Below, in pieces: positions 32,927-34,962 of a stretch of 64,000 nucleotides of DNA. Origin of the DNA: Syntrophaceae bacterium UBA6252 (GTDB lineage Bacteria; Desulfobacterota; Syntrophia; Syntrophales; UBA6807); assembly GCA_002441265.1 (NCBI GenBank), contig DJVQ01000045.1, forward strand, positions 57,575 to 121,574, read 5' to 3'. The translations under genes were made by a program, and so were the position numbers. Numbering within the stretch: position 1 is the stretch's first letter; each line of letters opens with the position of its first letter. The notes beneath the pieces are model-generated. The model saw nothing but the letters and a program-made list of their open reading frames with translations. It was not told where the DNA came from and searched no databases.

Positions 32927-32955
32927 TTGACAGGAGGCCCGCAATCCGATAGGAT
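32927..32955 (+). promoter_or_regulatory. Sigma70-like promoter for the PKD-repeat (putative seleno) protein
   Basis: TTGACA (32927-32932), 17-bp spacer, TAGGAT (32950-32955), preceded by a T-rich tract. Confidence 0.7.
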
Positions 32956-32961
32956 GCCCCG

Positions 32962-33190
32962 AACCCGCCCGGGAGAAATTTTCGTTGAAAATCCCCGAAA
33001 GGCGGGCTTTTTCAACGATGGTGTCTGAAAAGCGAGACCCGCAAAGGGTTCTGAAGCCCAGGGGAGATCCGGAAACCCCGGAATTGACGCCGGTCCCCGG
33101 GGAAGCGGGCCGTCACGGAGATTTCTCCGGAATGCGGTATGTTTATTGCAATAACCTCATGCAGTAAGAGAAAAATTACACTCTTTCGAG
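32962..33190 (+). other. Long, highly structured putative 5' leader
   Basis: Hairpins TCGTTGAAAA...TTTTCAACGA with an inner GAAA loop, AGACCC-GCAA-AGGGTTCT, and a nested TCCGGA...TGACG...CGTCA...TCCGGA structure. Confidence 0.4.
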
Positions 33191-33198
33191 GAGGAAAC

Positions 33199-34899
33199 AT
33201 GAAGAGGGTGGTCAAAAAGATCCCGATGTGGTCATTTATGGCCTTGGCGCTTGCCATTATCCTTACGCTGTCCATGGCAAAGCCGGCGGCCGCGGGGTGA
33301 GGCACGTGCTACTTTACGCTGGCCGTGACTGTCAGCCCGATTGCTATAGCAGGAAATGTGGAAGTTACCCCCGTAACGGAAAAACTGCAGAAGGTGACAT
33401 GCTACAATGAGGAGAGTGGCTCGGTTGAAGGCAAATGCAACTACGTTACGGAAGGGAGTATCTCCTATTATCTGACCGCCACCGCGAACGAGGGATACAC
33501 GTTCTCACGATGGGAGGGAGAAGTCTCGAGCACCAACCAGACGGTTACCATCACGCTCCCGGCAACGGCGGACTCGACGACGAAAAACTTCAAGGCGATT
33601 TTTGTGCAAAGGACCCCGACGCCCCCCACTGCGAACGCCGGGGCCGACCAGATAGTCGAATCCGGCACTCTGGTCACCCTCGACGGATCGGGATCGTCCG
33701 ACAGCGACGGGACCATCGTTTCGTACAGTTGGGAGCAGCTCTCGGGGACAGGAGTCGCCCTTTCCGACAACAACGCCCAGAAACCCACCTTCACGGCGCC
33801 CAATGTGGCGGCGGGTTCGACGGCGGCCCTGACCTTCCGTCTCCGCGTGTATGACGATGAGATGATGTCCGGAACGGACACCGTGACCATCACCGTGGGG
33901 TCGTCCAACGAGGCCCCCACTGCGAACGCCGGGGCGGACCAGTCGGTTCAGACGGGAACGACGGTCACCCTGAACGGGACCGGGTCGTCCGATCCCGAGG
34001 GAGGCGCGCTTACCTATGCCTGGACCCAGCTCTCCGGGACCGAGGTCACGTTGTCCGACCCGACTGCGTCGAGTCCCGCCTTCACCGCTCCCGATGAGGC
34101 GGGGACCCTCGTGTTCCAGCTCACTGTCACAGACAGTTACCAGGCTTCGGACACGGACACGGTCACGATCACCGTCTCGGTTCCGAGTGCATCGGCGGCG
34201 TACAGGCTCTACTACCCCCACGTGGTGAGCCAGCTTTCCGCCGGCGGCGACAAGGTCTGGGAGACGGACATCATCATCGTCTATACCGGCACGGAGGAAT
34301 CCTTCACGGGGACCCTCCTGGCCTACGACGCCTCGGGCGCGGAAGTCGGCACGGCCGTCGGGGTGACCCTGGCCCCCCTGGGAAGGATCGTCTACCCGGT
34401 GGGTGCGACCTTCGAATCGCCGGAGACGATCCGGTACATCGTTCTCGAGTCGGAACAGGACGGCGCCGTGGGCTATGAGCTGCTCGGCGTGGACGGCCTG
34501 GCCCGGACGACCTTCGAGGCGTACCAGGTTTCCGGGGATGCGGAATACCAGCCCCCCATCGCCCAGAGCCGGGCTTCGTCCGCCCTTCCCTCTTCGTCGG
34601 GCGTGTTCATGACGCTGGACCAGGCGGGCTGGACCGGCATCGTCTTCGTGAATCCCGGCGACGCCGAGGTCACGATCGAACTCAAAGCCTACAATGACGA
34701 AGGCGAGGAGATCGCGACCGATTCCTTCGACCTGGCGGCGGGAGGCTATCGCTCCGGGTTCGCTTCCGGGTTCTTCCTGGAGAAAGGGGCCCTTGAAGGC
34801 GCCACCCACATCACCTATTCGGCGGGCGGCGACGTGATCGCCGTCCAGTTTACCGGCGACTTCAGCGGCGCCATGCTGGATTCGCTTCCCGGCGCCTGA
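33199..34899 (+). CDS. Secreted PKD/K319-like repeat protein with in-frame TGA at codon 34 (putative selenocysteine, UxxC); alternatively a nonsense pseudogene
   Basis: GAGGAGG RBS then ATG 33199, in frame with ORF 33325. Reads MKRVVKKIPMWSFMALALAIILTLSMAKPAAAG-TGA-GTCYFTL...; then an InlB-B-like repeat (LTATANEGYTFSRWEG), two ANAGADQ PKD/K319-like repeats and two shared surface domains. Confidence 0.75.
33301..33350 (+). promoter_or_regulatory. Candidate bacterial SECIS hairpin
   Basis: GCTGGC(33318-23)-CGTGACT-GTCAGC(33331-36): 6-bp stem with one G-U pair; loop starts 23 nt after the TGA and has G in position 2; a possible lower GCTA/TAGC pairing. Confidence 0.55.
33623..34180 (+). repeat. 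Two intragenic PKD/K319-like domain repeats (291-nt period)
   Basis: CCCCCACTGCGAACGCCGGGGC(C/G)GACCAG occurs at ~33623 and ~33914. Confidence 0.75.
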
Positions 34900-34917
34900 T
34901 CCGGTACCGTAACGATG

Positions 34918-34962
34918 AAGGGAAAGGCAGGGTTCCCAAAACCCTGCCTTTCCCTTTTTTTT
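34918..34962 (+). terminator. Intrinsic terminator
   Basis: AAGGGAAAGGCAGGG-TTCCCAAAA-CCCTGCCTTTCCCTT followed by a T run. Confidence 0.9.

Follow-up and report, generated by a model that had tools for sequence, protein, structure and literature searches.

In bacteria, genes decoded by SelB through a SECIS element, such as those for FdhA and SelD, combine an in-frame UGA, a hairpin with an early-loop G 16–37 nt downstream, the sel gene set and a Sec/Cys pair (PMC13188914, in the part available to us). The bSECIS consensus in the same part of that source asks for a loop of 3–9 nt, a stem of 4–16 bp, a G in the first two loop positions, a spacing of 16–37 nt and an MFE of -7.5 or lower. Nearly every bacterial selenoprotein in the catalogues is an enzyme, a carrier or a component of a transport system, and its selenocysteine (Sec, U) sits in a fixed motif. 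Exported bacterial selenoproteins as such are already known: UshA-like proteins (NF041198/NF049981), SaoB/SaoX/SaoC and multiheme cytochromes also join Sec to a signal peptide. The gene described here shares the UGA, the early-loop G, the sel set and the Sec/Cys pair with the SelB/SECIS genes, but its family has a CGUG-NNN loop rather than the GGUCU loop found in five TGA genes of the same genome (two fdhA and three others), and Sec is predicted at the mature N-terminus of a non-enzymatic surface repeat, where it belongs to no constant motif and its Cys partner changes position. The exported selenoproteins listed above differ from it in having enzyme, binding-protein or heme folds and internal Sec. 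Its domain family and stalk-like architecture are those of the InlB B-repeat, also called the Listeria-Bacteroides repeat or Flg_new_2 (PF18998, PF09479, TIGR02543), and the literature assigns spacer, binding and putative adhesin roles to proteins with B-repeats (PMC12415215 and PMC9723798, each in the part available to us). Unlike the present family, ordinary B-repeats have 0, 2 or 4 Cys, no UGA and no hairpin.

The gene lies in a window of 64,000 nucleotides from the genome of Syntrophaceae bacterium UBA6252 (G000), to which all positions refer. Its reading frame runs on the + strand from ATG 33199 to TGA 34897–34899 (566 aa), and the sole in-frame TGA, at 33298–33300, encodes the predicted selenocysteine U34. 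A ribosome-binding site GAGGAGG (33188–33194) stands 4 nt ahead of the ATG, and a signal peptide (residues 1–32, 33199–33294) ends KPAAA; the -3/-1 rule predicts a cut after A-A-A, with A-A-G fitting too, which makes U34 mature residue 2 (or 1). The ribosome-binding site, the ATG, the signal peptide and the TGA had been pointed out in the initial annotation and all are present in the sequence. The same is true of its promoter, a sigma-70-like TTGACA-17-TAGGAT at 32927–32955 that is a consensus match only and the sole promoter-like match for the gene (shuffled sequence gives 0.4), and of its intrinsic terminator, an 18-bp stem with a T run at 34917–34957. The order signal peptide, G-U-G-T-C, PKD needs amendment: two PKD (K319L-like) repeats are indeed there (33622–34179, the predicted stalk), but they come second: a predicted tip domain of the InlB B-repeat-like type (Flg_new_2, PF18998) occupies 33301–33606, directly behind the TGA, with a Pfam match at residues 66–134 (43.9 bits against a cut-off of 23.6). 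The term "Cys-rich" was likewise too strong for a protein with three Cys (Cys37, Cys68 and Cys80), all within this first domain. The C-terminal region (34186–34896), which may serve in surface attachment, is common to other secreted proteins of the order at ~28% identity, and the last 237 residues of the protein had no match in the Pfam scan. With its own promoter and terminator, the gene sits inside a long surface-glycan cluster (1952–54884) of Wzm/Wzt ABC transporter, glycosyl- and methyltransferase and sugar epimerase genes; a homologue in the same-genus genome G001 likewise adjoins glycosyltransferase-like genes.

A premature TGA invites the suspicion of a sequencing error or a recent nonsense mutation. 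Contigs assembled from the runs of three other studies carry the codon at 33298 without a change, one of them at depth 82 over the whole gene (the site is without coverage in a fourth run), and wherever strains differ in the rest of the gene, the difference is a substitution. The same TGA is kept at this site in 45 distinct genes whose proteins are 22–50% identical to the reference row. Error is thereby rejected, and the chance that either event explains the codon is negligible. Judged from these comparisons, the TGA that follows the signal peptide marks a site of conserved recoding. Contigs of related strains from RNA libraries also cover the gene, though they carry neither strand nor level. 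Those of three runs join 33308 to ~33622–33637 with other or no sequence between, a hint of an allele that may keep the signal peptide and TGA while the tip domain is swapped or dropped.

The family was recovered by several routes. A whole-protein search of 61 genomes led to G001, in which a signal peptide is followed by A-TGA-SSLGLTVYVSP. Since the DNA of this gene shares the hairpin, 339 genomes of the order were searched for a TGA followed by the hairpin, giving 19 rows in 16 genomes against none for a reversed-pattern control. Eleven of the 19 consist of a signal peptide, an in-frame TGA, 4–6 residues and L-[TA]-V-x-V-S, and belong to the same domain; the other eight have no in-frame TGA near upstream. 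A protein profile matches 63 of the 339 genomes, mostly in ordinary repeats, and yields at least 17 TGA genes in 15 genomes, spread over three families (5 weak profile rows were left out of this list); six are new relative to the DNA pattern. A GTDB-wide pattern scan, fixed at the commonest TGA-hairpin spacing, returned 54 loci, 38 of which match the family profile and 16 of which do not. By record title, these 38 belong to Desulfobacterales groups, Syntrophales/Syntrophaceae and Deltaproteobacteria, with two in one Pseudomonadota record. Removal of 10 duplicates left the 45 distinct genes, 39 of them found by a pattern that requires the hairpin. TGA rows were present in 3 genomes of an even sample of 401 from the phylum, so the family is patchy; further rows occur in G451 and G727. 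A metagenome scan with the N-terminal 140 aa gave 79 loci at 32–63% identity, as partial stretches only. HMMER matches among 1.84 billion representatives were dominated by multi-repeat proteins, masking any Cys homologues, and a word-index search with a Desulfobacterales-type member gave no match. Five TGA members fall within one genome (listed under G722), where three stand in tandem (G722:C1, L329 and L330) and elsewhere a TGA member is followed by a Cys-codon paralogue.

The hairpin that follows the TGA had been described as GCTGGC-CGTGACT-GTCAGC, with its loop 23 nt downstream and a G in loop position 2, and it is found as described at 33318–33336 (GCUGGC-CGUGACU-GUCAGC in the RNA), overlapping the codons of the first beta strand L-A-V-T-V-S. 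With a 6-bp stem, a 7-nt loop, a G second in the loop and a spacing of 23 nt it fits the bSECIS ranges, its energy (-7.5 to -8.8 kcal/mol) only barely. Such a fit discriminates little in this GC-rich genome, in which our own implementation of the generic rule accepts 73 of 150 ordinary TGA stops. Taken alone, the window hairpin is at chance level: folding gives z-scores of -0.04 to +1.2 and a local energy of -7.5 kcal/mol, and the suggested RNAfold-type check was not significant. The evidence for the hairpin is conservation, not stability. Across 17 aligned genes, 99% of stem cells are paired, a level reached in 0 of 500 shuffles and approached by no slid register. The stem also covaries: one pair changes from C-G to G-C on both sides in five genes, and three pairs show one-sided wobble changes. 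The two-sided change belongs to one clade of five related sequences and alters amino acids, and it counts as one event. A caveat is that the hairpin overlaps a conserved beta strand. All six members found without the DNA pattern, however, keep ACC-GTG-NNN-GTC at freely synonymous sites, whereas one of 30 ordinary L-T-V repeats combines ACC with GTG (from control genomes that differ in GC content), and in the G001 gene repeat two encodes the strand with other codons. The family hairpin has a 6-bp stem and a CGUG-NNN loop that starts 17 nt after the UGA in 12 genes, 20 nt in four and 23 nt in the window gene, where the distance exceeds that of most members by 6 nt. On this pattern of codon use and pairing, we conclude that the hairpin is a selected RNA structure. 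A G000 gene of a known selenoprotein type, presumably an octaheme cytochrome c, has C-CGUG at its hairpin apex too. That family also appears in the PMC13188914 table.

The loop itself contains the GUG (GTG 33325) at which the ORF caller starts the window gene. The TGA might be a true stop or part of a selenium-sensing switch, with a cytoplasmic product made from GTG 33325, or the residue at this site might be irrelevant; gene callers do begin many homologues at the hairpin GTG. No ribosome-binding site precedes GTG 33325, though, and in-frame signal peptides are intact in 45 of 45 genes. That the residue matters is indicated by an odd-Cys rule (below) and by the Cys-codon paralogue. We consider a true stop or switch highly improbable. 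The paralogue, the only Cys-codon homologue found, is tandem to and 44% identical with its TGA neighbour in G722 and has TGT at the U site. Its hairpin is lost (-5.9 kcal/mol), Ser replaces the usual partner Cys, and a local C-Q-C has been gained. The start at the SECIS-loop GTG also helps explain why the family has stayed hidden from annotation, since it drops the signal peptide. A second reason is that Cys homologues are rare, and pipelines built on Cys/Sec pairs depend on them (PMC12013277, in the part available to us).

The genome of the window has selA, selB, selD (with its own in-frame TGA) and tRNA-Sec, the set whose presence had been named as a check. Among other carriers, selA was present in five of five examined, selB scored over the cut-off in five of five outside the order, and tRNA-Sec was found in six of eight (partial in G252); it was not found in G001, although selA and selB are present there. 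SelB occurs in 305 of the 339 genomes of the order, and being near universal, its co-occurrence with the family says little. A family gene of G304 (G304:C9:81887-90928) lies ~8.7 kb from a tRNA-Sec gene.

G000 also holds a second decoding system that could in principle read this codon. In work by Mukai et al., selC*-type tRNA-Cys(UCA) species, paired with SelB*, directed Cys to UGA codons when tried in E. coli, and which natural genes they serve has not been charted (PMC5389517, in the part available to us; such systems are also covered in the accessible part of PMC7609411). At G000:C15:7918-9994 (L003, L230), a second UCA-anticodon tRNA with A1:U72 and U73 lies directly upstream of a second selB (selB*), whose product reads GYGRMIGLP in its C-terminal RNA-binding segment where SelB has LSRKFTIP. 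The UGA could then be decoded as cysteine, with the hairpin as the SelB* target and a plain disulfide protein as the product. Against this, SelB* orthologues (45% identity or more) occur in 4 of the 339 genomes and in 1 of the 15 carriers in the order, namely G000. The other 14 have one SelB-like gene each, from a comparison in which three candidates were scored per genome. A selC* DNA query returned nothing in five carriers, in a search without a positive control, and no anticodon-domain-less (truncated) cysS* was found in G000, nor does any cysS* adjoin the locus. We regard decoding as cysteine as very unlikely, although a share of Cys may be inserted in G000 when selenium is scarce, and the gene is a candidate reporter of whether the selC*/SelB* of this genome supplies Cys at Sec codons. 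As the 14 other carriers have no SelB* and a single SelB-like match each, Sec is the family-wide reading, and insertion of Sec at codon 34, with SelB binding the CGUG loop, is very likely. The earlier proposal of a Sec-containing extracellular protein is in this sense supported by the TGA conservation, the covarying hairpin and the Sec machinery. The other SelB* orthologues go with UCA tRNAs in G233 and G244 and a GCA tRNA in G273. A second CysRS of G000, assigned by eye, is fused to a cysteine-synthase-like N-terminal part, and G722, outside the order, has a second, weaker SelB-like gene.

The initial annotation had pointed to a UxxC motif. It is present in one of the 45 members, the window gene; what is conserved is U at the mature N-terminus together with one lone Cys in the domain. 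The U domain has exactly one Cys in 43 of the 45, three in the window gene and two in G265, an odd number in 44 of 45 members, whereas 66 of 69 repeats without U have 0, 2 or 4. This parity makes it likely that Sec pairs with one lone Cys of variable position. That Cys stands at +1, +2 or +3 from U, in a mid-domain xTC motif, ahead of the final strand or within an insertion, mostly far from U and in G312 at an unusual place. A thioredoxin-type UxxC redox protein was rejected on the rarity of the motif and the all-beta PF18998 domain. By hand application of the -3/-1 rule, U would be mature residue 1 in 10 genes, residue 2 in 21 and either in 14, and the consensus mature start is G-U-G-x-P. A lipoprotein with a lipidated U was also rejected: two of the 45 have a lipobox-like motif ([LVI]-x-[GAS]-C after a hydrophobic stretch), and the residues usual at position -3 are A, E, G and K. 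In no case is U found in an internal repeat, such as the second one of G001; it invariably occupies the free tip. Probably, then, U forms a Se-S bond with the lone Cys at the N-terminal face of the same domain; in the window gene the partner would be Cys37 or Cys68. Since Cys68 aligns with the xTC partner, U34-C68 plus C37-C80 is as possible as U34-C37 plus C68-C80.

We propose that the UGA would be read as selenocysteine by the ordinary SelB/SECIS route, that signal peptidase would leave U at mature position 1–2, and that the exported protein would show its U domain at the tip of a stalk of PKD repeats. There, the bond between U and one Cys of the same domain would form an exchangeable selenium-sulfur site. 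The pair could swap with outside thiols, persulfides or soft metals, so that partner cells, matrix or mineral surfaces could be bound covalently and reversibly, and the Cys would recapture and protect the selenium. A Sec-recoded exported protein with an exchangeable Se-S tip on a repeat stalk is fairly likely as the overall explanation.

A first competing view keeps the Sec insertion but gives the Se-S bond a structural role only, as a clasp that would hold the N-terminus against the domain and withstand reduction where sulfide is abundant and the redox potential low. In its favour, a Se-S bond is less easily reduced than a S-S bond, and the partner Cys is distant in sequence in most members. 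The domain is moreover a non-enzymatic repeat of a type described as spacer and binder (available part of PMC12415215). The clasp has trouble with members in which the pair is UC, UxC or UxxC and with the C-Q-C paralogue, all of which join neighbours and brace nothing. In addition, ordinary repeats of the same order manage with even sets of Cys, and U keeps to the free tip and shuns internal repeats. We judge it unlikely, but a serious competitor. Alternatively, the N-terminal amine, U and the lone Cys may form a metal-binding hook (N2-S-Se) resembling the nickel hook of NiSOD, which reads H-C-D-L-P-C. The mature start G-U-G-x-P, with U at 2 and Pro at 5, has the same spacing as the nickel hook. 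The position of the partner Cys varies widely, however, there is no conserved His, and U may be residue 1 or 2, all of which make a metal hook quite unlikely, although with the clasp it is one of the two main competitors. Our own preference, held at somewhat less than even confidence, is for the Se-S pair as a reactive tip rather than a staple, for three reasons: adjacent UC, UxC and CxC pairs have nothing to brace, U occurs at the free end alone, and the roles ascribed to B-repeat proteins are spacing, binding and putative adhesion (PMC12415215 and PMC9723798, as above).

The thioester-domain (TED) covalent adhesins of Gram-positive bacteria, in which an irreversible Cys-Gln thioester forms the reactive tip bond of a repeat stalk with a C-terminal anchor, offer a possible working analogy; their fold and chemistry are different and no homology is claimed. 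A still bolder and rather doubtful extension is that these proteins are widespread selenium-tipped covalent adhesins, by which syntrophs and sulfate reducers would reversibly hook thiol-bearing partner cells or metal-sulfide surfaces. If this were true, it would be a non-enzymatic, cell-surface use of selenocysteine. Here Sec would cap an exported adhesin-type repeat, and the Cys partner has shifted on four or more occasions without change to codon or hairpin. The family may therefore point to a use of selenium on the surface of the anaerobic cells behind syntrophy and sulfur cycling.

The sequence beyond the U domain differs among members: it may be absent, or consist of PKD stalks, rhodanese-like domains, the C-terminal region of the window gene or a sorting motif of the CFI-box kind (NF041763, with choice-of-anchor U). 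The mature proteins of G265 and G270 comprise the 83-residue U domain alone, a single-domain form that makes the chemistry directly testable. In many members with Desulfobacterales titles (L231–L283) the U domain is followed by a rhodanese-like domain in which, judged by eye, Asp seems to replace the catalytic Cys; the G001 rhodanese-like domain keeps the catalytic Cys. As to the beta-grasp-like fold expected of a PF18998 domain, the AlphaFold model has a pLDDT of 65, and Foldseek, VIA-align and a PDB sequence search gave no clear relative, which is not evidence for a new fold. Eleven neighbourhoods, read by eye, contain no conserved redox or operon partner gene.

The initial annotation knew of no described selenoprotein family of this kind, and our searches agree. 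No B-repeat, PKD or surface family appears in Table 1 (119 families, 2026) of PMC13188914, which includes the families of Haft and Tolstoy 2025 (both statements refer to the part available to us). Among eight proteins scanned against NCBIfam 20.0, none has a selenoprotein model matching the U domain. No InlB, PKD or signal-peptide selenoprotein was found in the main text and one supplement of BSepDB (PMC13326102) or in the accessible parts of deep-Sep (PMC12013277) and SelCysML (PMC13745706), and neither B-repeats nor PKD domains are mentioned in the accessible part of the preprint by Haft and Gwadz. Literature searches, confined to partly accessible sources, gave no description of the family, and subscription papers, bioRxiv or other supplements could contain one. 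As far as sequence can tell, this is an uncatalogued family of exported repeat proteins, predicted to be selenium-tipped, whose UGA is real and very probably encodes Sec.

A few further observations concern neighbouring proteins and other recoded genes. Several database proteins (P0155, P0157 and P0178–P0197) start at VTVSP or MDVSP without a signal peptide, end in a transmembrane anchor and mostly retain the distal Cys; they are probably mis-started family members of another lineage. In-frame TGAs of G000 (on C68, C35, C48, C46, C41, C50, C28 and C31) fall, by eye, in two fdhA genes, selD, a YeeE-like gene, two UshA-like genes with signal peptides, a CoA-disulfide-reductase-like gene and the octaheme-cytochrome-like gene. 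A TAG within a coding-like frame at G000:C59:52292 (- strand; ..FVPDIN*ILIKRGG..) is a nonsense change or an error, and the broken frame resembles what we take to be fructose-1,6-bisphosphatase. Finally, L026 (G057:C42) encodes a secreted protein with the same C-terminal region as the window gene and an internal TGA (..DPSG-U-TCTV..) followed by a 7-bp GUG-loop hairpin, and is a separate candidate selenoprotein.
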